Source of the DNA: a virus
UHGV virus genome: UHGV-1377030
Length of the DNA stretch: 23,643 nucleotides
Reading direction: 5' to 3' (one strand)
The notes under the pieces are model-generated. The model made no database searches and was not told where the DNA came from. It worked only from the letters and a program-made list of their open reading frames with translations. Below are positions 1 through 16,987 of the stretch, one piece after another (position 1 is the stretch's first letter; every line of letters starts with the position of its first letter). The translations under genes and the position numbers were made by a program.

Positions 1-1068
1 AACCCGAACAATACCGGCGACAGCCGGAACTGCCGTGCCGGTGTGCAGATTAATGACAGTGGTGCGGCGCTGGGATATTACGTCAGCGAGGACGGGTATC
101 CTGGCTGGATGCCGCAGAAATGGACATGGATACCCCGTGAGCTACCCGGCGGGCGCGCCTCGTTCATTCACGTCTTTGAACCCGTGGAGGACGGGCAGAC
201 CCGAGGTGCAAATGTGTTTTACAGCGTGATGGAGCAGATGAAGATGCTCGACACGCTGCAGAACACGCAGCTGCAGAGTGCCATTGTGAAGGCGATGTAT
301 GCCGCCACCATTGAAAGTGAGCTGGATACGCAGTCAGCGATGGATTTTATTCTGGGCGCGAACAGTCAGGAGCAGCGGGACAAGCTGACCGGCTGGATTG
401 GTGAAATTGCCGCGTATTACTCCGCCGCACCGGTCCGGCTGGGAGGCGCAAAAGTGCCGCACCTGATGCCGGGTGACTCACTGAACCTGCAGACGGCTCA
501 GGACACGGATAACGGCTACTCCGTGTTTGAGCAGTCACTGCTGCGGTATATCGCTGCCGGGCTGGGTGTCTCGTATGAGCAGCTTTCCCGGAATTACGCC
601 CAGATGAGCTACTCCACGGCACGGGCCAGTGCGAACGAGTCGTGGGCGTACTTTATGGGGCGGCGAAAATTCGTCGCATCCCGTCAGGCGAGCCAGATGT
701 TTCTGTGCTGGCTGGAAGAGGCCATCGCTCGCCGCGTGGTGACGTTACCTTCAAAAGCGCGCTTCAGTTTTCAGGAAGCCCGAAGTGCCTGGGGGAACTG
801 CGACTGGATAGGCTCCGGTCGTATGGCCATCGATGGTCTGAAAGAAGTGCAGGAAGCGGTGATGCTGATAGAAGCCGGACTGAGCACCTACGAGAAAGAG
901 TGCGCGAAACGCGGTGACGACTATCAGGAAATTTTTGCCCAGCAGGTCCGTGAAACGATGGAGCGCCGCGCAGCCGGTCTTAAACCGCCCGCCTGGGCGG
1001 CTGCGGCATTTGAATCCGGGCTGCGACAATCAACAGAGGAGGAGAAGAGTGACAGCAGAGCTGCGTAA
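1..1068 (+). CDS. B: Portal protein, lambda gpB-like (5' end outside window)
   Basis: Open frame from window start to stop at 1068; translation matches the C-terminal region of lambda portal protein B as I recall it; followed by C with the overlapping start typical of lambda. Confidence 0.9.
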   Translation, partial: NPNNTGDSRNCRAGVQINDSGAALGYYVSEDGYPGWMPQKWTWIPRELPGGRASFIHVFEPVEDGQTRGANVFYSVMEQMKMLDTLQNTQLQSAIVKAMYAATIESELDTQSAMDFILGANSQEQRDKLTGWIGEIAAYYSAAPVRLGGAKVPHLMPGDSLNLQTAQDTDNGYSVFEQSLLRYIAAGLGVSYEQLSRNYAQMSYSTARASANESWAYFMGRRKFVASRQASQMFLCWLEEAIARRVVTLPSKARFSFQEARSAWGNCDWIGSGRMAIDGLKEVQEAVMLIEAGLSTYEKECAKRGDDYQEIFAQQVRETMERRAAGLKPPAWAAAAFESGLRQSTEEEKSDSRAA

Positions 1069-2368
1069 TCTCCCGCATATTGCCAGCATGGCCTTTAATG
1101 AGCCGCTGATGCTTGAACCCGCCTATGCGCGGGTTTTCTTTTGTGCGCTTGCAGGCCAGCTAGGGATCAGCCGCCTGACGGATGCGGTGTCCGGCGACAG
1201 CCTGACTGCCCAGGAGGCACCCGCGACGCTGGCGTTAGCCGGTGATGGTGACGGACCACGACAGGCCCGCAGTTATCAGGTCATGAACGGCATCGCCGTG
1301 CTGCCGGTGTCCGGTACGCTGGTCAGCCGGACGCGGGCGCTGCAGCCTTATTCGGGGATGACCGGTTACAACGGCATTATCGCCCGTCTGCAACAGGCTG
1401 CCAGTGACCCGATGGTGGACGGCATTCTGCTCGATATGGACACGCCCGGTGGAATGGTGGCAGGGGCATTTGACTGCGCTGACATCATCGCCCGTGTGCG
1501 TGACATAAAACCTGTATGGGCGCTGGCCAACGACATGAACTGCAGTGCAGGTCAGCTGCTTGCCAGCGCCGCCTCCCGGCGTCTGGTCACGCAGACCGCC
1601 CGGACAGGCTCCATCGGCGTCATGATGGCTCACAGTAATTACGGTGCTGCGCTGGAGAAACAGGGCGTGGAAATCACGCTGATTTACAGCGGCAGCCATA
1701 AGGTGGATGGCAACCCCTACAGCCATCTTCCGGATGACGTCCGGGAGACACTGCAGTCCCGGATGGATGCAACCCGCCAGATGTTTGCGCAGAAGGTGTC
1801 GGCATATACCGGCCTGTCCGTGCAGGCTGTGCTGGATACCGAGGCTGCAGTGTACAGCGGTCAGGAGGCCATTGATGCCGGACTGGCTGATGAACTTGTT
1901 AACAGTACCGATGCGATCACCGTCATGCGTGATGCACTGGATGCACGTAAATCCCGTCTCTCAGGAGGGCGAATGACCAAAGAGACTCAATCAACAACTG
2001 TTTCAGCCACCGCTTCGCAGGCTGACGTTACTGACGTGGTGCAAGCGACGGAGGGCGAAAACGCCAGCGCGGCGCAGCCGGACGTGAACGCGCAGATCAC
2101 CGCAGCGGTTGCGGCAGAAAACAGCCGCATTATGGGGATCCTCAACTGTGTGGAGGCTCACGGACGCGAAGAACAGGCGCGCGTTCTGGCAGAAACCCCC
2201 GGAATGACCGTGGAAACGGCCCGCCGCATTCTGGCCGCAGCACCACAGAGTGCACAGGCGCGCAGTGACACTGCGCTGGATCGTCTGATGCAGGGTGCAC
2301 CGGCACCACTGGCTGCAGGTAACCCGGCATCTGATGCCGTTAACGATTTGCTGAACACACCAGTGTAA
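1049..2368 (+). CDS. C: Capsid assembly protease/scaffold, lambda gpC-like (S49/ClpP-like peptidase)
   Basis: GTG at 1049 in frame with the 914..2368 ORF gives MTAELRNLPHIASMAFNEPLMLEPAYARVFF..., the lambda C N-terminus; overlaps the end of B as in lambda. Confidence 0.85.
   Translation: MTAELRNLPHIASMAFNEPLMLEPAYARVFFCALAGQLGISRLTDAVSGDSLTAQEAPATLALAGDGDGPRQARSYQVMNGIAVLPVSGTLVSRTRALQPYSGMTGYNGIIARLQQAASDPMVDGILLDMDTPGGMVAGAFDCADIIARVRDIKPVWALANDMNCSAGQLLASAASRRLVTQTARTGSIGVMMAHSNYGAALEKQGVEITLIYSGSHKVDGNPYSHLPDDVRETLQSRMDATRQMFAQKVSAYTGLSVQAVLDTEAAVYSGQEAIDAGLADELVNSTDAITVMRDALDARKSRLSGGRMTKETQSTTVSATASQADVTDVVQATEGENASAAQPDVNAQITAAVAAENSRIMGILNCVEAHGREEQARVLAETPGMTVETARRILAAAPQSAQARSDTALDRLMQGAPAPLAAGNPASDAVNDLLNTPV
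1763..2368 (+). CDS. nu3: Scaffolding protein Nu3-like, nested in-frame within the 3' part of C
   Basis: In-frame ATG at 1763 (MDATRQMFAQKVS...) sharing the C stop codon; matches the known lambda arrangement where Nu3 is translated from an internal start in C. Confidence 0.6.
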   Translation: MDATRQMFAQKVSAYTGLSVQAVLDTEAAVYSGQEAIDAGLADELVNSTDAITVMRDALDARKSRLSGGRMTKETQSTTVSATASQADVTDVVQATEGENASAAQPDVNAQITAAVAAENSRIMGILNCVEAHGREEQARVLAETPGMTVETARRILAAAPQSAQARSDTALDRLMQGAPAPLAAGNPASDAVNDLLNTPV

Positions 2369-2377
2369 GGGATGTTT

Positions 2378-2710
2378 ATGACGAGCAAAGAAACCTTTAC
2401 CCATTACCAGCCGCTGGGCAACAGTGACCCGGCACATACGGCAACCGCGCCCGGCGGATTGAGTGCGAAAGCGCCTGCAATGACCCCGCTGATGCTGGAT
2501 ACCTCCACCCGTAAGCTGGTTGCGTGGGATGGCACCACCGACGGTGCTGCCGTTGGCATTCTGGCGGTTGATGCTGACCAGACCAGCACCACGCTGACGT
2601 TCTACAAGTCCGGCACGTTCCGTTATGAGGATGTGCTCTGGCCGGAGGCTGCCAGCGACGAGACGAAAAAACGGACCGCGTTTGCCGGAACGGCAATCAG
2701 CATCGTTTAA
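2378..2710 (+). CDS. D: Head decoration protein, lambda gpD-like
   Basis: [27 protein letters not shown]...[10 protein letters not shown] matches lambda gpD; ATG at 2378 is the conserved start within the 2372..2710 ORF. Confidence 0.9.
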
Positions 2711-2728
2711 CTTTACCCTTCATCACTA

Positions 2729-2752
2729 AAGGCCGCCTGTGCGGCTTTTTTT
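2729..2752 (+). terminator. GC stem-loop followed by a T-run between D and E (terminator-like / RNA-stability hairpin)
   Basis: gccgc-ctgt-gcggc stem-loop (2732..2745) followed by ttttttt (2746..2752). Confidence 0.4.
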
Positions 2753-2766
2753 ACGGGATTTTTTTT

Positions 2767-3042
2767 ATGTCGATGTACACAACCGCCCAGCTGCTGGCGG
2801 CAAATGAGCAGAAATTTAAGTTTGATCCGCTGTTTCTGCGTCTCTTTTTCCGTGAGAGCTATCCCTTCACCACGGAGAAAGTCTATCTCTCACAAATTCC
2901 GGGACTGGTAAACATGGCGCTGTACGTTTCGCCGATTGTTTCCGGTGAGGTTATCCGTTCCCGTGGCGGATCCACCTCTGAATTTACGCCGGGATATGTC
3001 AAACCCAAGCACTTAGCATGGCTTTCTGAGGCTTTCGTGTAG
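2767..3042 (+). pseudogene. E: Major capsid protein E, 5' fragment truncated by the island insertion
   Basis: MSMYTTAQLLAANEQKFKFDPLFLRLFFRESYPFTTEKVYLSQ...TPGYVKPKH matches the lambda gpE N-terminus up to about nt 3012; the frame then reads 10 unrelated codons (LAWLSEAFV) and stops at 3042. The rest of E resumes at 13730. Confidence 0.85.
3002..3011. repeat. Left copy of 10-bp direct repeat (putative attL core)
   Basis: aacccaagca; identical copy at 13728..13737. Lambda-homologous E sequence ends here. Confidence 0.55.
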
Positions 3043-3139
3043 TTGCTGGTTTTTACACTTAATCTTTTGATAATAAAGAATAAATTTATCTGGCGCTTTC
3101 ACTGAATTTTCCTCGTTATCTGTGTGTTGCAATCATCTC

Positions 3140-3160
3140 TGTATTGCAGCTTGTATTGCT
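3140..3160. repeat. Tandem direct repeat tgtattgcagc / tgtattgct (putative integrase arm-type sites, left end)
   Basis: tgtattgcagc (3140..3150) and tgtattgct (3152..3160); a near-identical pair occurs at 13632..13652 in the same orientation. Confidence 0.45.
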
Positions 3161-3174
3161 TTTTGGGGCTAAAA

Positions 3175-4410
3175 ATGGCTGGCGAGAACAAACTGAGCGA
3201 CAAAGCGCTTAAAGGATATCTGGGGAAACCCAGAGAAAAGCAGATCACCATTGCTGATGGAAAGGGGCTTTCTATTCGTGTGAGTACTAAAGGGGCTGTG
3301 AGCTTTGTTTTCTTCTACAGGTTAGCAGGTGGCCGGGCTGCTCCGGTCTGGCTAACGTTGGGTAAATATCCTGATATGTCACTCAAACAGGCAAGGGAAA
3401 AGCGCGACGAGTGCCGTGGTTGGTTGGCTGACAAACGTGATCCGCGTATCCAGATTAAGATTCAGGCTGAAGAACGCTTAAAGCCGGTCACAGTGGAGGA
3501 TGCACTAAATTACTGGTATGAAAATTACTGTAAGGTGCGTCGTAAAACTCATGCTGTAACGCTTGGCAGATTTCGAAAGCATATCTTTCCCTATATCGGT
3601 CATTTGCCCGTAAATGACACTCACCTATATGAATGGCTGGACTGTTTTGACCGAATTAAACGTAATGCACCAGTTATGGCGGCGTATGTTTTTTCTGACA
3701 CTAAATTAGCTCTTCGTTTTTGTCGGGTACGCCAGTACGCGACGTGTGATGCTTTAAAGGATTTGCGCATGAGTGATGTGGGGCAGATTGCAGGTAAGCG
3801 GGATCGGGTTCTGGATGAAGCCGAACTCGGCCAGCTCTGGAAGGCAATTTTTGTCGAGCCTGATTTAAAACTAATGTCTGAATACACGCGAAAAATGTTT
3901 GTGCTTTGTACAGTATTTGGATGTCGAATGAGTGAAGCCCGATTATCAGAATGGAGCGAATGGGATCTCGAAAGTTGGGTTTGGACTGTACCAAAAGATC
4001 ACTCAAAAACTGGTGTTGAAATCGTCAGACCAGTACCTGAAATTCTACGACAGTGGGTAACGGATGTTCACGAAGAGACAAAACATACTGGTTATGTGCT
4101 GGGAAGTCTGCGAATTAGAGAAAGCGTAAGCAAGATTGGGGGGAAAATCGGTAAACGTTTGGGCCATGAAAAACAATGGTCACTACACGACCTTAGAAGA
4201 ACGCTATCTACTCATCTAAGTGATCTCGGTGTTGAATTTTATGTAGTAGAACAACTGTTAGGCCATGCGCTACCTGGCGTGGCAGGTGTTTACAACCGGA
4301 GTAAGTTTATGGCTAAAAAACTGGATGCTCTGGAACTCTGGACTACATATCTCAATAGCATCGCAGGTGCTGATTCAAAAGTGACGATCCTCAAACAAAA
4401 GGTTGGTTAA
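3175..4410 (+). CDS. int: Tyrosine recombinase / integrase, P4-type (N-terminal arm-binding domain plus catalytic domain)
   Basis: ATG at 3175 (MAGENKLSDKALKGYLG...) in the 3124..4410 ORF. N-terminus resembles the P4-like integrase arm-binding domain (DGKGLSIRVSTKGAVSFVFFYRLAG...LGKYPDMSLKQAREKRDE); the C-terminus carries HDLRRT, LLGHA and a VYNRS tyrosine region typical of tyrosine recombinases. Start at 3124 is an alternative. Confidence 0.85.
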   Translation: MAGENKLSDKALKGYLGKPREKQITIADGKGLSIRVSTKGAVSFVFFYRLAGGRAAPVWLTLGKYPDMSLKQAREKRDECRGWLADKRDPRIQIKIQAEERLKPVTVEDALNYWYENYCKVRRKTHAVTLGRFRKHIFPYIGHLPVNDTHLYEWLDCFDRIKRNAPVMAAYVFSDTKLALRFCRVRQYATCDALKDLRMSDVGQIAGKRDRVLDEAELGQLWKAIFVEPDLKLMSEYTRKMFVLCTVFGCRMSEARLSEWSEWDLESWVWTVPKDHSKTGVEIVRPVPEILRQWVTDVHEETKHTGYVLGSLRIRESVSKIGGKIGKRLGHEKQWSLHDLRRTLSTHLSDLGVEFYVVEQLLGHALPGVAGVYNRSKFMAKKLDALELWTTYLNSIAGADSKVTILKQKVG

Positions 4411-4411
4411 C

Positions 4412-4639
4412 ATGAAAAAAATGGCAATTGTTGATAAAAAGGGTCTGGAGTACATTCCTAACATTGACCGAATGATCCGTGAGAAAGAATGTCGGGAGCT
4501 AACCACTCTTGCGAACAGCACACGCTGGAAGCTGGAGAAGGAAGGAAAATTTCCTAAGCGGATCAAGATTGGTTCCACTGCTGTTGCATATCGTCTTTCA
4601 GAAGTGCAGGCATGGATTCGAGGTGAGTGGGTAGTTTAA
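4412..4639 (+). CDS. alpA: AlpA-like phage transcriptional regulator / excisionase-like HTH protein
   Basis: MKKMAIVDKKGLEYIPNIDRMIREKECRELTTLANSTRWKLEKEGKFPKRIKIGSTAVAYRLSEVQAWIRG; short MerR/AlpA-type HTH protein immediately after int with tight spacing (int stop 4408..4410, ATG 4412). Confidence 0.75.
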   Translation: MKKMAIVDKKGLEYIPNIDRMIREKECRELTTLANSTRWKLEKEGKFPKRIKIGSTAVAYRLSEVQAWIRGEWVV

Positions 4640-4664
4640 ATTATCTCAGAATAAAATATTATGA

Positions 4665-4700
4665 ATTACTGATTTGAGAATTTGTACTCAAATCAGTAAT
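4665..4700. terminator. Perfect 14-bp inverted repeat hairpin between convergent genes (bidirectional terminator candidate)
   Basis: attactgatttgag (4665..4678) and ctcaaatcagtaat (4687..4700) with an 8-nt loop, in AT-rich context between the alpA stop and the stop of the minus-strand membrane protein gene. Confidence 0.5.
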
Positions 4701-4708
4701 AACATTCT

Positions 4709-5245
4709 TTATAAGAGATTAAATCCAAATAAAGAGTAATCATATACCGGGGTGCATTGCATTCCACTGAATATGCTGATGTTTTTTTCTGTTTCTATCC
4801 TTTTTTCAATAAGTTGTTGTATATTTTTACAGTACAATTTGTGTGTGATGTTATTATCGTAAGCCTGATATAGCAACGTCAATGTTGACGCTAGGAAACA
4901 TACAGATAAAATTAAAATAATATATGCAGTTTTTTTATTTTTTGTCCATGATCTATTTGTTTGTGAAATATAAAGAATTCTGAGGTGGATAATGGTGAGA
5001 GACAATAGCAGGCCACTCAATAAAATAAGTATTGGGTTTGCGTATTTTATTAATGGTTGAGAGCAAAAAACTATTATAGCTCCTGTGACTGCGTATGAGA
5101 AAAAGGAGTAATTAAACTTCTTACTCCTTCTCTCAAGTATTTTAATTTCATCTTGTGTGGGGGTTTTAGATGCCTCTAATATAAGTTTATTGAATGTTTC
5201 TGTTATCTTGTTTTTTGTGTTTGTGGCTATTTTTTTTAGATTCAT
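4709..5245 (-). CDS. Hypothetical membrane protein (about 3 predicted TM helices), AT-rich cargo gene
   Basis: 178-aa ORF with hydrophobic stretches (FFSYAVTGAIIVFCSQPLI, ILILLSGLLLSLTIIHLRILYI, AYIILILSVCFLASTLTLLY), a GGGAG-like SD upstream, and strongly AT-rich codon usage unlike its neighbours. No family recognised. Confidence 0.5.
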   Translation of the reverse strand: MNLKKIATNTKNKITETFNKLILEASKTPTQDEIKILERRSKKFNYSFFSYAVTGAIIVFCSQPLIKYANPILILLSGLLLSLTIIHLRILYISQTNRSWTKNKKTAYIILILSVCFLASTLTLLYQAYDNNITHKLYCKNIQQLIEKRIETEKNISIFSGMQCTPVYDYSLFGFNLL

Positions 5246-5559
5246 AGCATTCTAACTCCCTTAACTTATTTATTACTTTCTCTTTATGATAAGAGAGGGG
5301 AATGACTTGGTAAAGTGATTTGTCATTAATAATGATAATCCTTGCGATAAATATTTCTGCAAGTTATTTATCTGTTTGTTGCTATCTTGTTAAGCGTTGG
5401 GTGTGGTTTATATTTGGAGCGACTTTATTTAATCGTGATTTTATGGATTTATATTTATATCCTGTAAGATAAGCGCATGTTAGTTTAGGAGTAGTGTCAG
5501 ATAAAATTATTCGGAGTAGAACTACCTTTTCTGTTTATTGCCAGTATTTACATAGCAAT

Positions 5560-5586
5560 GCGCCGTAGTTACTCACATCACGGCGC
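5560..5586. terminator. Stem-loop downstream of the minus-strand regulator gene
   Basis: gcgccgt (5560..5566) pairs with acggcgc (5580..5586); lies just 3' of the stop of the 5596..5898 gene on its strand. Confidence 0.3.
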
Positions 5587-5595
5587 TGATACTAA

Positions 5596-5898
5596 TTATT
5601 CAGATTCTTTGGCTTTACGCCGCTGGAGTTCTTCACGAGCGACGGCTACGAGTTGCCCGATTTCCTCCGCTGCCTTGATGCCGATTTGTTCGACCTTAGC
5701 TAAGGCATCCAGTGAAGACACGAGGGGATTTTCTCCGCTTCCTTCTGCCTGGCGGCGGGCGATCTCACCGCGCATGGCGGTTACTATGAATCCGGCGTTG
5801 CTTTCGCCGTCCAGTTTTACGGATTCCATGCCCTCCATAACATCGTGGGGAACCCTGATCGTTGTCATTTGCGATTTTGCATTTTTGTATACAGACAT
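5596..5898 (-). CDS. Putative small transcriptional regulator (repressor-like; possible ribbon-helix-helix N-terminus)
   Basis: 100-aa ORF divergent from the replication operon. N-terminal MTTIRVPHDVMEGMES resembles the beta-strand of RHH (Arc/CopG-like) DNA-binding proteins. The start could instead be the internal Met at 5868. Confidence 0.45.
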   Translation of the reverse strand: MSVYKNAKSQMTTIRVPHDVMEGMESVKLDGESNAGFIVTAMRGEIARRQAEGSGENPLVSSLDALAKVEQIGIKAAEEIGQLVAVAREELQRRKAKESE

Positions 5899-5914
5899 AG
5901 TTAATCACCAATTT

Positions 5915-6025
5915 GTTATGTGTATATCACTATACACAAAAGTGAGATATAAAAACACTTGCAATGTATATCACCACAATATAATGTATATCTCACATTA
6001 TGGTCGCTATGTATCTCACAATGAT
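5915..6025. promoter_or_regulatory. Divergent promoter/operator region with four direct copies of TGTATAT(C)TCAC-like motif plus an inverted copy
   Basis: tgtatatcac (5921..5930), tgtatatcacc (5965..5975), tgtatatctcac (5985..5996), tgtatctcaca (6009..6020) and inverted gtgagatat (5942..5950), all within the 208-bp gap between divergent genes. Confidence 0.5.
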
Positions 6026-6106
6026 CGATTCATAAAAACGACGAAACCCGGCAGTGCGCGAACACTAACCGGGCTTCTAACCAAACCGTTAAACGAGGTA
6101 ACTATT

Positions 6107-6472
6107 ATGGCTGGAACACAGCATACCCAAACTCACCCTAAATTTATATACATCTTTCTGGCGCTACATCGCGATCGCATAGCAGATGGAGCAACTACGG
6201 TACATGTAGCCGCTGACACGCTGGTTGATGCCCGCAAGATGGTTAAGGAGATGGGCTATACTGCGGCTTTCTGGAAAGGGCGGGAAGAAAACACGCTGTT
6301 TATTCAGAAATGTGAAAACAATTTCCTCTGGCGTTTTATCGCCCTGAGTACGACACAACCGCGCGTGATTACCATCGAGGCCACCAGCGAACAGGAAGCC
6401 CGCCAGCAATCCCCAACTGGCTGCGTGATGATATTCGCCGCCCGTATTCGTCAGGAGGTGTGCCATGAATGA
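6107..6472 (+). CDS. Hypothetical protein (first gene of island early/replication operon)
   Basis: ATG at 6107 preceded by a GAGGT SD; the longer 5558..6472 ORF would run antisense through the regulator gene, so it is trimmed. No family recognised. Confidence 0.5.
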   Translation: MAGTQHTQTHPKFIYIFLALHRDRIADGATTVHVAADTLVDARKMVKEMGYTAAFWKGREENTLFIQKCENNFLWRFIALSTTQPRVITIEATSEQEARQQSPTGCVMIFAARIRQEVCHE

Positions 6473-6689
6473 TCTTTATTTTAAAGTGCTGACACATGCT
6501 GAAAACGCGCTCGTTTGTGGCAAAAATATGCGAGAAATCTTATCAACCTGGCTTGATGGGACAACAAATGCGGAACACGATGAACGGGATGCTAATTTAG
6601 CTGGAGCGTTAATTACGTTACTTGATCCTGTCATCAAAGAGCTGGATGAAGCTATAAAAATACACGATCAGAGCTATACCGAAGAATAA
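6465..6689 (+). CDS. Hypothetical protein
   Basis: 74-aa ORF; its ATG overlaps the upstream stop (ATGA coupling) and is preceded by an AGGAGG SD. Confidence 0.5.
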   Translation: MNDLYFKVLTHAENALVCGKNMREILSTWLDGTTNAEHDERDANLAGALITLLDPVIKELDEAIKIHDQSYTEE

Positions 6690-6691
6690 AA

Positions 6692-6979
6692 ATGAAAAAT
6701 AAATTTTCTGGCTTTATTGCTAGCGGTCAAGCTCATTCAAAAATCAGCCTTGGGGATATTTTCAAAGATAGCTATGGCTATCGGGTAAAGATTATTTCGG
6801 TTGATGATCGCCGTGTCCCTTATTTGCGTGATGGTTATGATTTTGAATGTGTTATGCCGCGTCAGCAGTTCGAAAGAGATTTCATTCTGGTAAAAAATTG
6901 CAAGACAGATAATCAGAGGCGTGCCGCAGGCTATATCCGCAAAATTCGGGCAATGTTAGTTGCCGGAGGTAATAAATGA
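6692..6979 (+). CDS. Hypothetical protein
   Basis: 95-aa ORF starting 3 nt after the previous stop; operon context. Confidence 0.45.
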   Translation: MKNKFSGFIASGQAHSKISLGDIFKDSYGYRVKIISVDDRRVPYLRDGYDFECVMPRQQFERDFILVKNCKTDNQRRAAGYIRKIRAMLVAGGNK

Positions 6980-7158
6980 AACGTGCTCCGAACTTAAAAT
7001 ACCAACCGCGCGACAAAATGACAGAAGTCATCATTTTTGCTGGCAGTGATGCCTAGAGCCATGCAAAAGAATGGAATGAATGGGCGGGTAAGCATATTGC
7101 AGCAGATGATACACCACCAGTAATTCTGGGTACGGAACAACTGGAAAACCTGGATGAT

Positions 7159-8796
7159 ATGCAAATTATCGATGAAGGCCGTCATTATGTGCGTGTTTAT
7201 CGTGCCGGAAAGATTGCAGAGAAAAATCTGACGAAGGTTGCGACATTACTTGCTATTGCAGGCGTAAAGGAAGCACGTTGTTACCGTAGCTTTGTTGATC
7301 GAGAGCCTGAAGACTGGACTCCGCGCCTTGTCGGCCTAAAAGCTGAAGCGGAGCATGGGGAAAGTCTGGTGATTGAACTGCCAGTGAAGAAGGCTGAGCG
7401 CAAAAATGACGAGCGTGCTTCATCTTTGGCGTTGAATCAGATGGGGGCCAGCCAGCGCGGTGAAGTTCTCCTTGCACATTACGGCGGCGAACTGGCAATC
7501 AATGCCGACTCTGACACCGTTCATCATTACAACGGCGTTGTATGGGAGCCGGTTCAGGATAAAGAGTTACAGCGTGCTATGGCGCAGATTTTCATTGATG
7601 CGGAGATCAGCTATTCGCAGAACGCTATTAAATCGGCGGTAGATACCATGAAGTTAAGTTTGCCTGTAATGGGGAATACAGCCCGTAACCTGATTGGATT
7701 CAGTAACGGGGTATTTGATACCAGAACTGGTAATTTTCGGGAGCATAACAAAAACGACTGGTTGTTAATTGCCAGTGAATTACCTTTCAGCCCACCAGCA
7801 GAGGGGGAAACGCTGGCAACACATGCGCCGAATTTCTGGAAGTGGTTGCGCCGTTCGGTGGCTGAGAATGACCGCAAGGCAGATCGCGTACTGGCGGCAT
7901 TATTCATGGTGCTGGCGAACCGGTACGACTGGCAGTTATTCATTGAGGTAACAGGGCCGGGGGGAAGTGGTAAAAGTGTGATGGCGGAGATTTGCACCAT
8001 GCTGGCGGGTAAGGCTAATACAGTATCAGCAAGCATGAAGGCGCTGGAAGATGCAAGGGAACGTGCGTTAGTGGTTGGCTTTTCGCTGATTATCATGCCG
8101 GATATGACCCGCTACGCTGGTGATGGGGCAGGGATTAAGGCCATTACAGGCGGTGACAAGGTGGCAATTGACCCGAAACACAAAGCCCCCTATTCAACGC
8201 GTATTCCGGCAGTAGTGCTGGCGGTTAACAATAACGCCATGTCATTCAGTGACCGCAGCGGGGGGATCTCACGTCGTCGGGTGATATTCAATTTTTCGGA
8301 AGTTGTACCGGAGAACGAACGCGATTCGATGCTGGCGGAAAAAATAGAAGGTGAGCTGGCGGTAGTGATTCGTCATCTGCTTACAAGGTTTGCTGATCAG
8401 GACGAAGCCAGACGCCTGTTATATGAGCAGCAGAAATCTGAAGAAGCACTGGCGATAAAGCGAGAGGGGGATTCGCTGGTGGACTTCTGCGGTTATCTCA
8501 TGGCATCGGTAATGTGTGATGGCCTGTTAGTGGGTAATGCTGAAATTGTGCCATTCAGCCCACGCAGGTATCTCTATCATGCCTATCTGGCTTATATGAG
8601 GGCACATGGGTTTGGTAAACCTGTAACACTGACGCGCTTCGGTAAAGATATGCCGGGGGCAATGGCGGAATATGGCAGGGAGTATATGAAACGGAAAACG
8701 AAGCACGGTTTGCGTTCAAACGTGACCCTGACGGAGGAATCAGAAGACTGGATGCCATCATGTGTATCGGTCACTAATGACGATAGCAAAAATTAA
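7159..8796 (+). CDS. Phage/plasmid primase-helicase, P4 alpha-like (D5 N-terminal-like region plus SF3 P-loop NTPase)
   Basis: Walker A GPGGSGKS in TGPGGSGKSVMAEICTMLAG, a downstream hydrophobic-acidic Walker B-like stretch (LVVGFSLIIMPDM), and overall resemblance to satellite/PICI primase-replicase proteins. Gene is followed directly by an iteron array. Confidence 0.8.
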   Translation: MQIIDEGRHYVRVYRAGKIAEKNLTKVATLLAIAGVKEARCYRSFVDREPEDWTPRLVGLKAEAEHGESLVIELPVKKAERKNDERASSLALNQMGASQRGEVLLAHYGGELAINADSDTVHHYNGVVWEPVQDKELQRAMAQIFIDAEISYSQNAIKSAVDTMKLSLPVMGNTARNLIGFSNGVFDTRTGNFREHNKNDWLLIASELPFSPPAEGETLATHAPNFWKWLRRSVAENDRKADRVLAALFMVLANRYDWQLFIEVTGPGGSGKSVMAEICTMLAGKANTVSASMKALEDARERALVVGFSLIIMPDMTRYAGDGAGIKAITGGDKVAIDPKHKAPYSTRIPAVVLAVNNNAMSFSDRSGGISRRRVIFNFSEVVPENERDSMLAEKIEGELAVVIRHLLTRFADQDEARRLLYEQQKSEEALAIKREGDSLVDFCGYLMASVMCDGLLVGNAEIVPFSPRRYLYHAYLAYMRAHGFGKPVTLTRFGKDMPGAMAEYGREYMKRKTKHGLRSNVTLTEESEDWMPSCVSVTNDDSKN

Positions 8797-8804
8797 ACTT
8801 ATGG

Positions 8805-9040
8805 AATAACTGTTCACCACTGTTCACCCTGTCATAAATATCTTTTATATCAGTATATTATAGGGTGAACAGTTATTTATGAACTGTTCACCAAACTATT
8901 CACTGTTCACCTTTTTGATTGTTTATTGAGCTTCAAGGGTGAACAGTGGTGAACAGTTGGTGAATAGTTTTTGTGAAACTGTTCACCCATTAACATTATG
9001 AATTAAAAGAGAAAATATCAAAAGGTGAACAGGTGAAGGG
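8805..9040. repeat. Iteron array, putative island replication origin
   Basis: About 10 copies of CTGTTCACC or its complement GGTGAACAG in both orientations: 8810..8818, 8820..8828, 8864..8872, 8884..8892, 8903..8911, 8938..8946, 8948..8956, 8959..8967 (degenerate), 8979..8987, 9024..9032, in AT-rich non-coding DNA just 3' of the helicase gene. Confidence 0.65.
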
Positions 9041-9083
9041 TTAAAACGCAAAAATTTTAATTTACTGCTGTGAGATAAAGCCT

Positions 9084-9329
9084 ATGACAGCGAAGCACAC
9101 AAAAAAATCACAATCGCACGCCCTTGATTTGACGGAACACTGGTTAAGGGTGTCGATAAAAATCATCGACCGCAACGCCGGGGAAGGATACGCGAAAGCA
9201 CATCCCGAACTGATTAGCGCATTCATGACAACGGCGGCTGCAAACTTTGCCACTCTGACCGAACGGGAGATTGCTGAAGCGGAGGAAGTGACAACAATCA
9301 ATATTAAGTCCGGAGAGCAGGCAGCATGA
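9084..9329 (+). CDS. Hypothetical protein
   Basis: 81-aa ORF; its stop overlaps the start of the next gene (ATGA). Weak SD. Confidence 0.4.
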   Translation: MTAKHTKKSQSHALDLTEHWLRVSIKIIDRNAGEGYAKAHPELISAFMTTAAANFATLTEREIAEAEEVTTINIKSGEQAA

Positions 9330-9775
9330 CGGCGCAAATATCAGTTTACGGGCGGTTGGTGGACGACCCGCAGACAAAACAGACCAGCAAGGGCACCCCC
9401 ATGACGCTGGCGCGTATGGCGGTATCACTGCCCTGCAGTCAGTCGGATGACGGTCAGGCGACGATGTGGTTATCTGTCCTGGCGTTTGGCAGACAAGCCG
9501 ACGCGCTGGCAAAGCATCACAAAGGCGAACTCCTGAGCGTGGCGGGTAATATGCAGGTGAGCCAGTGGACTGGACAGAACGGTGAAACGCGGCAGGGCTG
9601 GCAGGTTATCGCAGACAGCGTAATCAGTGCGCGAACGGTGCGACCGGGCGGCAAAAAAGGTCAACAGGGTCAGGCTACTGACGCACTGAACAGAGCAAAA
9701 CAACAGGCAGATCAGCAAGGAAGCCATCCACCAGTGGGAGATAATGAGCAATGGGGAGATGATATTCCGTTTTAA
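9326..9775 (+). CDS. Single-stranded DNA-binding protein-like (divergent SSB with acidic C-terminal tail)
   Basis: 149 aa ending in ...EQWGDDIPF, the characteristic SSB C-terminal tail (DDDIPF); a Gly/Gln-rich linker precedes it. Confidence 0.6.
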   Translation: MTAQISVYGRLVDDPQTKQTSKGTPMTLARMAVSLPCSQSDDGQATMWLSVLAFGRQADALAKHHKGELLSVAGNMQVSQWTGQNGETRQGWQVIADSVISARTVRPGGKKGQQGQATDALNRAKQQADQQGSHPPVGDNEQWGDDIPF

Positions 9776-9783
9776 ATATTGCC

Positions 9784-9808
9784 AATAAAAAAGGCCGGAA
9801 AAAAATAA
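9784..9808. other. Palindromic hairpin after the SSB-like gene
   Basis: gccggaaaa-aaataaa-ttttccggc perfect palindrome; terminator or operator, function unclear. Confidence 0.3.
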
Positions 9809-9992
9809 ATTTTCCGGCATGCTACATAAATCCCGACCAAAGGGAGTGAAGATATTAACACTAATTATCCGCGCTGGAGTTGTTATCCCAAAACTTTATA
9901 CAACATTGCACTCGGTTGCATGTATTCGCATGACAAATATCGGTGATAGCATATATCCACAATTATTTTTAATGAATGCAAAGAGGATGCGT

Positions 9993-11033
9993 ATGGTTGA
10001 TTTATATTCGCCTACCCAGCTTGTACAGGTGGTTAATGCTGTAGATGTACAAAAACAACTAAATGCGTTGTTTACCAGTTTGTTTTTTACTCGCTCGGTA
10101 ATGTTTGAATCGCGCGATATTATTCTTGATACAATCGACGATCCAAATATCCCAATTGCAGCGTTTTGTTCTCCTATGGTAGGTAGTAAAGTTTCACGTG
10201 ACGAAGGGTACGAATCAAAAACAATTCGTCCAGGCTATATGAAGCCGAAAAGCAGCATTGATCCAAATAAGTTAGCTGTGCGCCCTGCTGGTGTATCACC
10301 TGAGCAATACAATGCTTTTGGAGCGCGTAATATTAAAGTTAAACAGGCGATTGTAAATCAGGCTAAAGCTATTCGTGCACGTATTGAATGGTTTGCCGTT
10401 CAGGCAATCACAACGGGGAAAAATATCATTGAGGGCGATGGTATTGAACGTTATGAGCTGGACTGGAATATAAAACCACAAAATATCATCACTCAGTCTG
10501 GCGGTACTGAGTGGTCAGGTAAGGATAAAGAAACTTTTGATCCAAATGATGATATTGAGAGCTACGCAGAATTTAGTGAGGGCGTCACTAATATCATCAT
10601 TATGGGCGGTAATGTATGGAAGAAATACCGTTCATTCAGAGCGATAAAAGAGGCTCTGGATACCCGTCGTGGTTCTAATTCCGAACTGGAAACGGCCCTT
10701 AAAGACCTTGGTGATTCGGTGAGTTTTAAAGGGTATATGGGCGATGTTGCGATTGTTGTATACAGCGGGCGTTATACCGACGAGGACGGAACTGAAAAAC
10801 ATTTCCTTGATCCTGATTTGATGGTGCTTGGCAATACGGCTCTTCAGGGGATTGTCGCCTATGGCGGTATTCAGGATCCGGAGCTAATCCGAATGGGGCT
10901 GACTAAAGCCGAACTTGCACCGAAAAACTATATTGTGCCTGGTGATCCGGCTATTGAATATGTGCAGACACATTCAGCACCACAGCCAATACCGGCCCGC
11001 ATCAATCGTTTTGTTACCGTTCGCATTGGCTAA
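9993..11033 (+). CDS. Island-encoded major capsid protein homologue (lambda gpE-like, full length)
   Basis: ATG at 9993 with an AGAGGA SD 5 nt upstream. MVDLYSPTQLVQ... aligns with the gpE N-terminus, and the C-terminal half is clearly homologous (ITQSGGTEWS, LDTRRGSNSELETA, GDVAIVVYSG, MVLGNT, GDPA), visible even at nucleotide level. Confidence 0.85.
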   Translation: MVDLYSPTQLVQVVNAVDVQKQLNALFTSLFFTRSVMFESRDIILDTIDDPNIPIAAFCSPMVGSKVSRDEGYESKTIRPGYMKPKSSIDPNKLAVRPAGVSPEQYNAFGARNIKVKQAIVNQAKAIRARIEWFAVQAITTGKNIIEGDGIERYELDWNIKPQNIITQSGGTEWSGKDKETFDPNDDIESYAEFSEGVTNIIIMGGNVWKKYRSFRAIKEALDTRRGSNSELETALKDLGDSVSFKGYMGDVAIVVYSGRYTDEDGTEKHFLDPDLMVLGNTALQGIVAYGGIQDPELIRMGLTKAELAPKNYIVPGDPAIEYVQTHSAPQPIPARINRFVTVRIG

Positions 11034-11042
11034 GGGGGAGCA

Positions 11043-11384
11043 ATGGCTACTCATTACACTGAACTCATGGCTGGCACTGAAGCACTGGTGACTACGCTGG
11101 GGATATTTTCAGCTAATAAAGGGGTAATTCCTGCATTTACGCCACTGATGCAGGAAGATGCAACAGGTGCACTGGTGGTATGGGATGGTTCGAGCGTAGG
11201 TAAAGCGGTTTATGTTTCCGCTGTACAAATCGACACCGCGAAAAAAACACAGGCTCAGGTCTATAAGACAGGTGTCTTAAATGTTGATGCTCTGAACTGG
11301 CCTGAGTCTGTAAAAGAACTGTCAGTAAAGATTGCAGCGTTTGTTGGCTCAGGTATTTCTGTTCAGCCGCTGGCTCGTGTGTAA
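11043..11384 (+). CDS. Island-encoded head decoration protein homologue (lambda gpD-like)
   Basis: 113 aa with strong SD (AAGGGGGAG). TPLMQEDATGALVVWDGSSVGKAVYVSAVQ...FVGSGISV parallels gp[30 protein letters not shown]...FAGTAISIV; similar length. Confidence 0.7.
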   Translation: MATHYTELMAGTEALVTTLGIFSANKGVIPAFTPLMQEDATGALVVWDGSSVGKAVYVSAVQIDTAKKTQAQVYKTGVLNVDALNWPESVKELSVKIAAFVGSGISVQPLARV

Positions 11385-11395
11385 AGGGGGATACA

Positions 11396-11779
11396 ATGCA
11401 GAATGATTACAATGACCTTAAGCCACTTGCCGAAATGATGTACCCGAATCCAGCTGTAGAGGAATTAAAAGCTATCGCTGACAAAATGTGTTTAAGCGAG
11501 CGCCTTGTTGATATGAATCAGGTGATGGAAATTACAACCCTGAGTCGGCGTACACTGCTAAACCTTGAGGCTAGTGGAGAGTTCCCGGAGCGTGTGCAGG
11601 TTACGGAAGGGCGTAAGGCCTGGTATTTAAGTGAAGTGATCGACTGGATAAATAATATTCCTCGCGCTTCTGAATATTGCCGCGTACCTGTCCCAAAAAA
11701 GCCAGATGCGGCGCTATGCCTCAAGATTGAGCGTGTACGCCGCAATGCACGGGATGGTCGCTATAAGCTGATTGGTTGA
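11396..11779 (+). CDS. Small HTH DNA-binding protein (AlpA/MerR-like winged helix), candidate cos-binding or packaging-redirecting protein
   Basis: 127 aa with strong SD. Central segment MEITTLSRRTLLNLEASGEFPERVQVTEGRKAWYLSEVIDWINN has AlpA-like HTH architecture; gene sits directly upstream of the island cos site. Confidence 0.55.
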   Translation: MQNDYNDLKPLAEMMYPNPAVEELKAIADKMCLSERLVDMNQVMEITTLSRRTLLNLEASGEFPERVQVTEGRKAWYLSEVIDWINNIPRASEYCRVPVPKKPDAALCLKIERVRRNARDGRYKLIG

Positions 11780-11832
11780 TGAAATTAGGGCCCGCTCTGG
11801 CTGGCGGGTCCTTTCCGGCGATCTGACAGGCT

Positions 11833-12000
11833 ACGGGGCGTCAGGCGCGCAGTTTTTTGCTATTTGTGAAAATTTTCCTGTTTAAGGCGTTTCCGTTCTT
11901 CTTCGCCGTAACTTAATGTTTTTATTAAAAACACCCCCTAAAAAGAAAGGAAACGACAGGTGCTAAAAACAGGCTTTTTGGCCTCTGTCGTTTCCTTTCT
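11833..12000 (+). other. Lambda-type cos site carried by the island (cosN-like plus cosB R3, I1 region, R2, R1)
   Basis: Sequence from ctacggggcg... through gcgtttccgttcttcttcg (R3-like, 11888..11905), agaaaggaaacgacag (R2-like, 11944..11959) and ctgtcgtttcctttct (R1-like, 11985..12000) closely parallels the left end of lambda DNA as I recall it. The R-site region is near-identical; the cosN segment differs at several positions. Confidence 0.75.
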
Positions 12001-12345
12001 CTGGTTTTGTTGCCATCCGTCGCGGTCTATCACCAGAAAAAATCTTATCCCTGAGTTGAATCAGGCCCTATTCAGAAGCGGCCAATAACGCGCCGCTAGC
12101 TTCACTTCATAGTTATGGCCTACTTCTGCGCCATTGCAATTGCTTTATGCGCCTTGATGGTGGAATATAGAGCAAGCAGTTTGCGAATAACAAAGTTTCA
12201 TATGTTTTTTGCTGTGTGGCTAGACAACTTTACAGCAGAGTTTTGTGTCAGTTCTTTATGTGTGCAAGCAAGCTTGAGGGGGAATTACTTCTGGCTGCAT
12301 CTTTGCTTAAGAACAGCAATAATTTAATCATAAGGAAATGTATAT

Positions 12346-12368
12346 AAGCCTGATTAAATTTCAGGCTT
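12346..12368 (-). terminator. Hairpin immediately 3' of the TIR-domain gene
   Basis: aagcctga (12346..12353) pairs with tcaggctt (12361..12368) around a 7-nt loop, 10 nt beyond the gene stop, in AT-rich context. Confidence 0.4.
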
Positions 12369-12377
12369 ATTGAAATG

Positions 12378-13520
12378 TTAACTCCTTATTAGAGAGTAAA
12401 TTCCATCCTCTTTAAGGAAGTCTATTACTTCAAAGAATGAGATAAAGAATTCCCAAGAACCAAAAGCATATGCATGAATTTCGTAAGGTGCAAAATGGAA
12501 TCTAAATCCATCACTATTTATTGTGAACGAGTCTAAGTTACTATCCATGATACCCGTTGCAAACGTACTAATGTCGTCCTCACTTGGTTTTTCACCAGTT
12601 TTCTCCCAAAATTCACGAGCTGATTCAGAGATTATTTTTTGTTTTATCTTATTAATCGCTTCTTGCTCTTTCCCTTCGGTAAATACATCCCATAAACTAA
12701 ATTTGTATGCGTAGTCATCCTTGGTTATTACGAAATTACTAGTTTCAAAATGACTGTTAGGGTGTGCTGCTCCCGCACCATACCAATGTACGGAATGAAG
12801 GATGCTCATAACATTTTCGTTACAGTATGAGATGTTATAACTTTCATTATAGGAACTAGTGTAAGTGTGTTTATATTCTTCATCCCAATATGGTGTTCCT
12901 GGCCATAGTGATGTGCGTTCAGAAAAAATATGTAAAGCCGCTTTTCCTGAAAAGTAATCACTAATGAGTTTTGCTGATTTCGGTAATGTATGGCTTTCAA
13001 TTCTTGGATATGCTATTTCAATTTCATGCCCTGGGATCTTGTTATATTCTTCCTTGAAAACCTCGCTGCTAAAGTTAAATGGCCCATAAGTGATACCTTG
13101 AGATATTTCAAGTTTTTGTTGCGATGCTGCTAATCTTAAAGATCTAGATAAAATGTCCCAACCATCATTTCTCTTAAAATCAATGAATTGGAGCTTGCTT
13201 GATATGTAGGCGGGTACTTCGCAATCATCAATAAGTAATGGTATCACGAACACATCATCTGGTTTGTAATACTTTAGTTTATCAATGGCGTCATTTATTT
13301 CGCGGCGAATATAACCATTTTTCTGAGTGCTCACTTTGCTAAGGATAAGGATTATCAAGTTTGAATTAGCGAAGTTTTTTTGGATTTCATAATCCCAGTT
13401 TACGCCAGCGGGTATATCTTTTACATCCATCCAAGGGGAATATCCTCCACTTTTTAGCCTTTCATAGATTTCTTCAGTTATCGTTTCATCTTCTTTTGCA
13501 TGAGCAAGAAAAATTTTCAT
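12378..13520 (-). CDS. TIR-domain protein with uncharacterised ~240-aa C-terminal domain (candidate anti-phage defence cargo)
   Basis: 380-aa ORF with an AAGGAA SD 6 nt upstream. N-terminus MKIFLAHAKEDETITEEIYERLKSGGYSPWMDVKDIPAGVNW...LIILILSKVSTQKNGYIRREINDAI fits the bacterial TIR pattern (K-I/V-F-L/I-S/A-H/Y start, W at box 2, S-x-x-S...E catalytic-type segment). Strongly AT-rich relative to island and phage genes. Confidence 0.75.
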   Translation of the reverse strand: MKIFLAHAKEDETITEEIYERLKSGGYSPWMDVKDIPAGVNWDYEIQKNFANSNLIILILSKVSTQKNGYIRREINDAIDKLKYYKPDDVFVIPLLIDDCEVPAYISSKLQFIDFKRNDGWDILSRSLRLAASQQKLEISQGITYGPFNFSSEVFKEEYNKIPGHEIEIAYPRIESHTLPKSAKLISDYFSGKAALHIFSERTSLWPGTPYWDEEYKHTYTSSYNESYNISYCNENVMSILHSVHWYGAGAAHPNSHFETSNFVITKDDYAYKFSLWDVFTEGKEQEAINKIKQKIISESAREFWEKTGEKPSEDDISTFATGIMDSNLDSFTINSDGFRFHFAPYEIHAYAFGSWEFFISFFEVIDFLKEDGIYSLIRS

Positions 13521-13631
13521 TGAATATTCCTTTATAATTTAACTAATTAAGTGAAGGAGGCTTTACTTGGCTGTGTTAGAAAAAATTCGGTTTGTTTTTT
13601 GTACGATGCCAAGAAGGCTTTTCCCTAACCA

Positions 13632-13652
13632 TGTATTGCAGCATGTATTGCT
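13632..13652. repeat. Tandem direct repeat tgtattgcagc / tgtattgct (putative integrase arm-type sites, right end)
   Basis: tgtattgcagc (13632..13642) and tgtattgct (13644..13652), matching the pair at 3140..3160. Confidence 0.45.
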
Positions 13653-13727
13653 ACGTAATTCTGCACCCTCTCATTTATAAAATAAATCTCTGTTAAATCA
13701 AGTATCTTTTTTCTATTTGACTCATGT

Positions 13728-13737
13728 AACCCAAGCA
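13728..13737. repeat. Right copy of 10-bp direct repeat (putative attR core)
   Basis: aacccaagca; lambda E-homologous sequence resumes exactly here. Confidence 0.55.
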
Positions 13738-14518
13738 TGAGGTGAATCCGCAGATGACCCTGCGTCGCCTGCCGGATGAAGATCCGCAGAATCTGGCGGA
13801 CCCGGCTTACCGCCGCCGTCGCATCATCATGCAGAACATGCGTGACGAAGAGCTGGCCATTGCTCAGGTCGAAGAGATGCAGGCCGTTTCTGCCGTGCTT
13901 AAGGGCAAATACACCATGACCGGTGAAGCCTTCGATCCGGTTGAGGTGGATATGGGCCGCAGTGCGGCGAATAACATCACGCAGTCCGGCGGCACGGAGT
14001 GGAGCAAGCGTGACAAGTCCACGTATGACCCGACCGACGATATCGAAGCCTACGCGCTGAACGCCAGCGGTGTGGTGAATATCATCGTGTTTGATCCGAA
14101 AGGCTGGGCGCTGTTCCGTTCCTTCAAAGCCGTCAAGGAGAAGCTGGATACCCGTCGTGGCTCTAATTCCGAGCTGGAGACAGCGGTGAAAGACCTGGGT
14201 AAAGCGGTGTCCTATAAGGGGATGTATGGCGATGTTGCCATCGTCGTGTATTCCGGACAGTACGTGGAAAACGGCGTCAAAAAGAACTTCCTGCCGGACA
14301 ACACGATGGTGCTGGGGAACACTCAGGCACGCGGTCTGCGTACCTATGGCTGTATTCAGGATGCGGACGCACAGCGCGAAGGCATTAACGCCTCTGCCCG
14401 TTACCCGAAAAACTGGGTGACCACCGGCGATCCGGCGCGTGAGTTCACCATGATTCAGTCAGCACCGCTGATGCTGCTGGCTGACCCTGATGAGTTCGTG
14501 TCCGTACAACTGGCGTAA
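13730..14518 (+). pseudogene. E: Major capsid protein E, 3' fragment (continuation of the gene interrupted at about 3012)
   Basis: PKHEVNPQMTLRRLPDEDPQNLADPAYRRRR...DEFVSVQLA matches lambda gpE from about residue 80 to the C-terminus. An in-frame TAA at 13727..13729 precedes it, so the fragment lacks its N-terminal part. Confidence 0.85.
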
Positions 14519-14522
14519 TCGT

Positions 14523-14547
14523 GGCCCTTCGGGGCCATTTTCTCTCT
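14523..14547 (+). terminator. GC stem with tetraloop followed by T-rich tract after E (terminator-like / RNA-stability hairpin)
   Basis: ggccc-ttcg-gggcc (14523..14536) followed by attttctctct. Confidence 0.4.
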
Positions 14548-14559
14548 GTGGAGGAGTCC

Positions 14560-16972: not shown

Positions 16973-16987
16973 TCCGGAGAGTCAGCG

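Follow-up and report, generated by a model that had tools for sequence, protein, structure and literature searches.

Results

A satellite inserted in the capsid gene of its helper

The window analysed here, a 23,643-nucleotide stretch of virus genome UHGV-1377030, carries the head and tail genes of a helper prophage whose lambda-type major capsid gene E is interrupted at codon ~82 by a phage satellite of 10,726 bp, inserted by its own tyrosine integrase (Table 1). E is split without replacement sequence: its 5' and 3' fragments flank the island and rejoin at the core, and in-silico excision at the 10-bp repeat AACCCAAGCA yields an intact 341-aa E that can be aligned from end to end with the major capsid protein of lambda. 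The open frame of the 5' fragment (E') continues into the island as far as a stop at 3040-3042. A natural empty site is found in LF82, where the same prophage has an intact E with the predicted attB and a single copy of the core. Using a junction probe, we found the E'-attL-int junction in 173 of 5426 complete E. coli genomes; where E is intact in other genomes, the match is exact as far as base 3011.

By its sequence, the element is an HE-PICI (helper-embedded PICI) of site group E:Phage_cap_E:80 and the Eco567.11capE family. The island segments are 98-100% identical to Eco567.11capE of E. coli NRG857c, the type element of the HE-PICIs, cargo and cos excepted; the two elements share the E target site, the 10-bp core, the doubled TGTATTGC motifs and the gene order, and their int, alpA, primase, capsid and decoration genes match. 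They differ in cargo, which is DUF262-HEPN in NRG857c and TIR-DUF3298 in the window, and their P arms have diverged outside the motifs. The TIR-DUF3298 protein is a probable anti-phage defence protein, and other copies of the element hold different cargo at this position. The order int, alpA, variable zone, primase/ori and late zone is that of Gram-negative PICIs, as are the length (typically ~10-15 kb) and the absence of lysis and tail genes from the island. An Rfam scan of 2300-14600 found no P4-type immunity RNAs (C4, isrK); the sole match in that range was a sub-threshold symR-like one at 6040-6112 on the minus strand.

Table 1. Features of the satellite and of the helper genes that flank it, in window coordinates.
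Feature	Position	Strand	Remarks
Portal B (partial)	43-1068	+	Pfam Phage_portal_2; annotation of identical region in AR_0013
S49 prohead protease/scaffold C-Nu3	~1049-2368	+	Pfam Peptidase_S49; AR_0013 annotation
Helper head decoration gene D	2378-2710	+	Pfam HDPD 2.6e-22; annotation
Lambda-native D/E intergenic hairpin	2728-2749	+	9-bp stem, then U-run; fold -14.5 kcal/mol, z -2.7
E 5' fragment (E')	2767-3011	+	codons 1-81; Pfam Phage_cap_E positions 1-78
attL copy of 10-bp crossover identity block AACCCAAGCA	3002-3011
P' arm of attP, also int leader	3012-3174	+	163 nt, crossover to int start codon
Doubled motif TGTATTGCAGCTTGTATTGC	3140-3159	+	start 133 bp from att centre
int, tyrosine integrase, HE-PICI clade	3175-4410	+	Pfam Arm-DNA-bind_3 + Phage_integrase
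alpA (excisionase/activator family)	4412-4639	+	Pfam Phage_AlpA 3e-15; phrog_2790
Hairpin between alpA and convergent gene	4665-4700		14-bp stem; z -4.15
Membrane protein gene	4709-5245	-
YlcI/YnfO-family gene	5596-5898	-
icd-like gene	6107-6472	+	start of early/replication zone (6107-9775)
Early-zone ORF	6465-6689	+
DUF4222 gene	6692-6979	+
D5-type primase	6976-8796	+
Iteron-rich origin	8795-9032
Replication-zone ORF	9084-9329	+
SSB	9326-9775	+
Island E-like capsid gene	9993-11033	+	42% identical to helper E; late zone 9993-11779
D-like decoration gene	11043-11384	+	38% identical
Second AlpA-family gene	11396-11779	+
Island cos region	11805-12009	+	88% identical to helper cos; substitutions clustered in cosN
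Cargo: TIR-DUF3298 protein gene	12378-13520	-
Second doubled TGTATTGC motif, P arm	13632-13651	+	end 81 bp before att centre
attR copy of 10-bp core AACCCAAGCA	13728-13737
E 3' part	13738-14518	+	Pfam Phage_cap_E 94-328; then FI and tail genes up to window end

Orientation of int and alpA

The earlier note had placed int and alpA co-directional with the helper late genes and directly downstream of the truncated E 5' fragment, and the coordinates bear this out: D, E', int and alpA all lie on the + strand, with E' ending at 3011 and int starting at 3175. The primase is likewise co-oriented with the interrupted gene. At a single locus co-orientation amounts to a coin flip, and the asymmetry of the core dictates it for any given att site; it exceeds chance because it is repeated across independent sites. 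All six independent late-gene targets in our sample (E, Clp protease, portal ~239, portal N-terminus, tail tube and tail T) are co-oriented with int, as are 14 of 14 published helper-embedded sites (Tommasini, Mageeney and Williams 2023, PMC10111431), and on these counts we reject chance orientation.

The int-alpA unit

The first transcription unit past the junction consists of int and alpA, which are separated by 1 nt (int stop TAA at 4408-4410, alpA ATG at 4412), and alpA is translationally coupled to int. The int gene is 99.6% identical in nucleotides to the NRG857c 11capE int, the identity by which we place it in its clade; alpA is 98.2% identical to the NRG857c copy, and the two proteins are identical and carry the same accession. 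The hairpin that follows alpA, judged by its predicted fold, closes the unit for unmodified polymerase. Such tight spacing is characteristic of embedded elements: int and alpA lie -29 to +9 nt apart in 14/14 helper-embedded loci versus 116-1291 nt in 53 non-embedded relatives. Because the helper-embedded elements form a monophyletic clade, the abutting pair may be a single inherited trait.

The junction between E' and int

Given the position of the P' arm between E' and int, we scanned 3012-3174 for signals that could stop or start transcription. No terminator-like site was found on the + strand in this interval, and its RNA folds no better than shuffled sequences (z +0.38). The sole promoter match is a weak sigma-70-like one (9/12) at 3052-3081, in a stretch with an att-arm-like build; promoter-like sites across the scanned region were only two standard deviations above the shuffle mean. 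The conserved TTGAT there is better suited to an IHF-type site than to a -35 box; an IHF-consensus-like TAATCTTTTGATA lies at 3060-3072.

HE-PICIs carry a doubled TGTATTGC motif ~81 bp upstream and ~132 bp downstream of the attP centre (PMC10111431), and both doubled motifs of the island sit at these published distances. Among 80 integrase-relative loci the doubled motif occurs in 14. Four of these are chromosomal loci, off-target or uncertain, and two are contigs whose shortness prevents classification; the others are the late-gene-embedded loci. Terminator frequency in the 220 nt upstream of int, which we also compared, did not discriminate (2/14 embedded vs 6/62 non-embedded), and the two embedded matches overlap the doubled motif.

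Upstream of E', the GC hairpin and U-tract between D and E should halt ordinary polymerase and should not halt Q-modified polymerase; Q-modified polymerase ignores terminators.

State of the host prophage

The nearest genomes in the E. coli collection are 99.3% identical over the window and 100% over the island, and the helper early region is inferred from these relatives. The two nearest genomes carry the composite at the argU/DLP12 locus, in a remnant prophage with a truncated integrase and IS elements, in which cI, cro, N, O and P are not annotated; the NRG857c composite, in contrast, is an inducible icd-site prophage. The helper is intact in both NRG857c and 22KM0354. Q and the complete late operon are kept in the closest genome. 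There, in a region outside the window, a Q-family gene carries at its 3' end a promoter-like site, and a terminator with a 9-bp stem lies ~100 nt downstream (both consensus matches only), after which the lysis and head genes follow on one strand.

In the window's copy int and alpA are intact, as are the two att arms, the core, cos and every late gene, and 22KM0354 encodes the same Int and AlpA proteins. The primase has an in-frame stop at 7054-7056 (codon 27) and is intact in NRG857c and 22KM0354; this nonsense codon argues against autonomous replication of the island. Taken with the remnant prophage of the nearest genomes, which lacks immunity and replication genes, it suggests that ordinary induction of the helper may fail to set off the window's copy.

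Discussion

We lean, somewhat, toward the interpretation that late-operon read-through into int-alpA releases islands of the Eco567.11capE type. That helper late transcription runs into int was already hypothesized for Eco567.11capE (PMC10111431). The type element excises precisely after helper induction, as determined by qPCR and sequencing; by qPCR, the composite excises at 1 h and then replicates, and the satellite excises at 2 h; virions were not recovered even for this element (PMC10111431). Our literature search returned no later transcript-level work on helper-embedded PICIs. The earlier note had proposed that read-through drives excision once the helper commits to lysis. The anatomy fits the read-through part of the proposal, since int-alpA is the first unit, no terminator intervenes and co-orientation is recurrent, but the commitment to lysis may not apply to a remnant host prophage.

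In the sequence of events that we envisage, late-promoter transcripts made without Q would end at tR' and the D/E hairpin, leaving int-alpA silent and the island stable. With Q, terminator-resistant transcription would proceed through Nu1-A-W-B-C-D-E' and the 163-nt P' arm into the coupled int-alpA pair, as anatomy and lambda biology suggest. Int and AlpA, the latter as directionality factor, would then excise the island at AACCCAAGCA and rebuild E, a step that for the window is represented in silico and by the natural empty site. AlpA expression alone triggers excision and replication of EcCICFT073 (PMC6092414), and by analogy AlpA would turn on the island replication genes; packaging of the island, from its own cos, would then use the terminase and tails of the helper. 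For the window's copy the trigger would have to be supplied by the remnant prophage, with its own Q, or by a superinfecting phage whose Q is compatible.

A different explanation, which we consider unlikely, is that a helper factor acts in trans on a promoter of the island, located in the P' arm or within int, to express alpA and int, and that read-through is incidental. An EcCICFT073 alpA reporter is indeed induced in trans by helper phages, and AlpA autoactivates (PMC6092414); the sigma-70-like match in the junction could serve as such a promoter, and the late excision of the type element fits equally well. Against this, the single nucleotide between int and alpA leaves no room for an alpA promoter, non-embedded relatives keep wider gaps at this point, and the junction match is weak, lies in an att-arm-like stretch and belongs to a class of sites only slightly enriched over shuffled sequence. 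We give still less credence to the proposal that selection favoured co-orientation because it makes transcription compatible and lets the island capsid, decoration and cos-proximal genes be expressed late, and not for control of excision. Late transcription would on that account cross the island to FI-J without head-on conflict, and int-alpA would come first as the ancestral PICI order. Almost every gene of the island, the E-like and D-like ones included, does face one way, the tail genes of the helper follow downstream of it, and the order int-alpA-pri-late is general among PICIs; the proposal leaves unexplained, however, why the tight int-alpA pair is restricted to embedded elements and why it has its own closing hairpin. 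Compatibility and read-through are not mutually exclusive.

It is somewhat unlikely, in our estimate, that the window's genome holds a mere fossil, a non-inducible remnant prophage with a replication-defective satellite in which nothing is sensed or excised. The argU/DLP12 composite of the nearest genomes, with its truncated integrase, its IS elements and its missing early annotations, points in that direction, as does the primase stop. The intact excision, packaging and late genes, the Int and AlpA proteins preserved as in 22KM0354 (AlpA also as in NRG857c) and the retention of Q with a complete late operon argue against it, and in K-12 the late genes of DLP12 are known to be expressed under Q and RpoE control. 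Returning to read-through, one extension of it is a speculation that we hold to be improbable: a DLP12-locus remnant reduced to Q, late promoter and late operon, together with its embedded satellite, might form a standing trap for superinfecting lambdoid phages. A compatible Q from the incoming phage would activate the remnant late operon and with it int-alpA, releasing a satellite that hijacks the phage, and the tight int-alpA fusion of embedded elements would be an adaptation tying excision to upstream read-through.

Comparison with known systems places the element among Gram-negative PICIs such as EcCICFT073 (Fillol-Salom et al. 2018, PMC6092414), with which it shares int, alpA and pri-ori modules, mostly unidirectional genes, a length of ~11 kb, lambdoid helpers, cos packaging and AlpA as cycle activator; those elements differ in occupying chromosomal-gene sites, in being induced by the helper in trans and in having an alpA with its own promoter (PMC6092414). 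P4, the satellite of P2, is alike in having an integrase of the same larger clade, the AlpA-family Vis, a D5-type primase and helper-driven cos packaging; it differs in its tRNA-gene integration, its cross-activation in trans (P2 Ogr, P4 Delta) and its RNA immunity system. The skin element in sigK of Bacillus subtilis and phi10403S in comK of Listeria, an analogy drawn in PMC10111431, also split a gene that is rebuilt by timed, precise excision; here, in contrast, the gene that is split is part of another mobile element, and timed excision would serve the satellite and not the cell.

The arrangement and the read-through idea have been known since 2023 under the name "helper-embedded PICI" (PMC10111431), and the concept, the element family and the timing data are published, so the value of the present analysis lies in confirmation and refinement: we add the co-orientation at six of six sites, the embedded-specific int-alpA fusion, the occupied/empty pair of NRG857c and LF82 and the warning about a remnant prophage. 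The arrangement is present in ~3% of complete E. coli genomes. If the read-through model is true, it would constitute a cis-wired link between satellite and helper, by which a satellite does without a sensor protein of its own, and the helper capsid gene would be delayed until the satellite departs, a distinct parasitic strategy.

Structure of the interrupted capsid gene

A lambda-like late operon on the + strand fills the window (portal, S49 protease, D, E, FI and tail genes to J, at 55-60% G+C), broken from about 3012 to 13727 by a low-G+C block (33-50%) that divides the helper capsid gene E. The 10-bp AACCCAAGCA is present on both sides of the break, and in silico removal of one copy plus the intervening 10,726 bp restores a 341-aa E, whose alignment to the solved lambda major capsid protein (E value 5e-228) covers its full length. 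When a 461-nt junction probe was run against 5426 complete E. coli genomes, 173 had the junction of the E 5' fragment (E') with the island as in the window, and more than 3000 genomes with intact E matched the probe exactly as far as base 3011.

The island begins with int, alpA, two minus-strand genes, an icd-like gene, a D5-type primase with an iteron-rich origin, and SSB, and continues with E-like and D-like genes (products 42% and 38% identical to helper E and D), a second AlpA-family gene, a lambda-type cos and a minus-strand TIR-DUF3298 cargo gene. Cargo and cos aside, it shares 98-100% identity with the element of E. coli strain NRG857c, which is Eco567.11capE, the type "helper-embedded PICI" of Tommasini, Mageeney and Williams 2023 (PMC10111431). 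That study reported a 10-bp identity block, a doubled motif 81 and 132 bp from the att centre, 201 instances at the same E site as in the window, and 14 late-gene sites, every one co-oriented; the distances in the window, 81 and 133 bp, agree.

Features of the interrupted E gene and of the island, in window coordinates
Feature	Position	Strand	Evidence or remark
Lambda-native D/E intergenic hairpin	2728-2749		9-bp stem and U-run, z -2.7; upstream of the int-alpA unit
E codons 1-81	2767-3011	+	domain match
AACCCAAGCA, two copies	3002-3011; 13728-13737		10 bp
Stop of truncated E frame	3040-3042		132 nt 5' of int ATG
Promoter-like match	3052-3081		score 9/12
TAATCTTTTGATA	3060-3072		IHF-consensus-like
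Doubled TGTATTGC	3140-3159; 13632-13651		motif and twin copy
int	3175-4410	+	arm-binding, SAM-like and catalytic domains
alpA	4412-4639	+	Phage_AlpA, E value 3e-15; phrog "excisionase and transcriptional regulator"
Hairpin between alpA and convergent gene	4665-4700		14-bp stem, z -4.15
SymR-like match	6040-6112	-	35 bits, Rfam gathering score 61, E value 0.0012
Primase	6976-8796		stop at 7054-7056; ORF restart at 7159
GGTGAACAGT-type repeats	8795-9032		just 3' of primase
Second AlpA-family gene	11396-11779		phrog_2790, full length, 2e-49
Island cos	11805-12009		205 bp
TIR-DUF3298 cargo	12378-13520	-	PADLOC, best 1.6e-17
Remainder of E	13738-14518	+	domain match

The dense direct and inverted GGTGAACAGT-type repeats are probably the replication origin. 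The second AlpA-family gene, directly 5' of cos, matches phrog_2790 (an AlpA-family protein group) more strongly than does the int-adjacent alpA; in some genomes at least one gene of the island family is annotated 'terminase small subunit'. Island and helper cos are 88% identical, with the substitutions concentrated in cosN (near 11830-11850; GGGCGGCGACCT in the helper, GGGCGTCAGGCG in the island), so the cohesive ends of the satellite would differ from those of the helper, and this divergence may be linked to packaging discrimination. The cargo matches TIR-containing defence proteins through its TIR domain only; since DUF262-HEPN, DUF2971 or Abi genes occupy its position in other copies, this is a defence-gene hotspot. 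The sub-threshold match to SymR antitoxin RNA lies on the strand opposite the beginning of the icd-like gene and may represent a small antisense regulator or have arisen by chance.

The junction upstream of int

The earlier note placed int and alpA co-directional with the late operon and immediately 3' of truncated E, and the coordinates, + strand and domains bear this out; the two genes are 1 nt apart. A terminator scan of the junction found no terminator-like site on the + strand between E' and int, and RNA from 3000-3190 is no more stably folded than shuffled sequence (z +0.38). The int-alpA unit is framed by two hairpins, and by what is established for lambda the upstream one, between D and E, should halt unmodified polymerase but not Q-modified polymerase.

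Judged by its sequence, the 163 nt 5' of int resembles an att arm, not a promoter region: TAATCTTTTGATA is located between crossover and doubled TGTATTGC, both keep constant spacing across elements with different target genes, and before int there is a single promoter-like match. The IHF consensus match is partly conserved at aligned positions in L069-L083, loci whose elements have different late-gene targets.

Comparison with integrase relatives

From an alignment of diverse integrase relatives we fetched 80 loci, one genome per species, and found the doubled motif 5' of int in 14. The motif loci embedded in late genes represent six targets (E, a Clp-type prohead protease, portal at about profile position 239, the portal N-terminus after gpA, tail tube protein and tail protein T), with int co-oriented with the split gene at all six; chromosomal off-target insertions show both orientations (L081 opposite, L083 same). 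In all 14 motif-bearing loci, the window included, alpA is directly adjacent to int or overlaps it (-29 to +9 nt), whereas in 53 non-embedded relatives it lies 116-1291 nt 3' of int (median 960), in most cases separated from it by a further + strand ORF, a contrast that we did not find in Tommasini 2023 (PMC10111431). This is consistent with embedded elements expressing both genes from upstream, and would fit non-embedded elements having kept a distinct promoter for alpA, as demonstrated in EcCICFT073 (PMC6092414). Because the embedded clade is monophyletic, the spacing may reflect a single evolutionary event. One integrase relative, the 391-aa P0004 (81% identical over 77% of the query), has an N-terminal Phage_Nu1 Pfam domain, which points either to a gene call that spans a junction with a small terminase gene and fuses the two or to another target site.

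Proposed late read-through and its alternatives

The idea that helper late transcription reads into int-alpA and drives island excision is sound but not new, since the discussion of Tommasini 2023 (PMC10111431) already expects late transcription to run on into the integrated satellite; we regard it as plausible and partly supported. In the mechanism that we consider most likely, Q-dependent late transcription would cross the terminator-free P' arm (3012-3174), leading to expression of Int and AlpA; these would excise the island and rebuild E, as shown for the type element, and AlpA would switch on the island cycle by analogy with EcCICFT073, in which AlpA expression by itself leads to excision and replication (PMC6092414). 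By qPCR and sequencing, the composite of prophage and embedded satellite excises at 1 h and then replicates, and the satellite excises not before 2 h (Tommasini 2023, PMC10111431). Transcript data are absent from that paper, and a literature search for a later study on helper-embedded PICIs found none.

A serious rival to read-through is that a helper factor activates an island promoter in trans, as this route is proven for ordinary PICIs. Selection for transcriptional compatibility, or for expressing the island capsid genes late, could also account for the co-orientation at all late-gene targets, with no role in excision.

State of the window lineage and a natural empty site

The window is 99.3% identical overall, and 100% across the island, to the best genomes in the collection, AR_0013 and AF57, none being identical throughout. 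In both, the composite occupies the argU/DLP12 locus, bounded at one end by ompT-envY and at the other by a truncated integrase accompanied by IS elements. Their host prophage has no annotated cI, cro, N, O or P and keeps the Q gene and full late operon, with a promoter-like site and a strong terminator 3' of Q; in K-12, the DLP12 late genes reportedly respond to RpoE and to a Q-type antiterminator. Upstream of the part equivalent to the window, the nin region of these genomes lies between an IS3/IS629 element and a group II intron, and the moron genes include iss. Commitment of the helper to lysis by ordinary SOS induction probably cannot happen in this lineage, and read-through would then require either Q from the remnant itself or a superinfecting phage; the read-through idea is possibly moot for this copy. 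At codon 27 the primase of the window, AR_0013 and AF57 is interrupted by an in-frame stop, with a 545-aa ORF restarting downstream; the stop is confined to this lineage, the gene being intact in NRG857c and 22KM0354. Strain 22KM0354 carries the same TIR-bearing island in an icd-site prophage, so at least two prophage backbones have carried the element.

LF82 is closely related to NRG857c and shares its icd-site prophage, with identical neighbouring proteins. The LF82 E gene is uninterrupted (16413-17438 of locus L153), and across the site it matches the predicted attB exactly, making NRG857c and LF82 a natural pair of occupied and empty strains.
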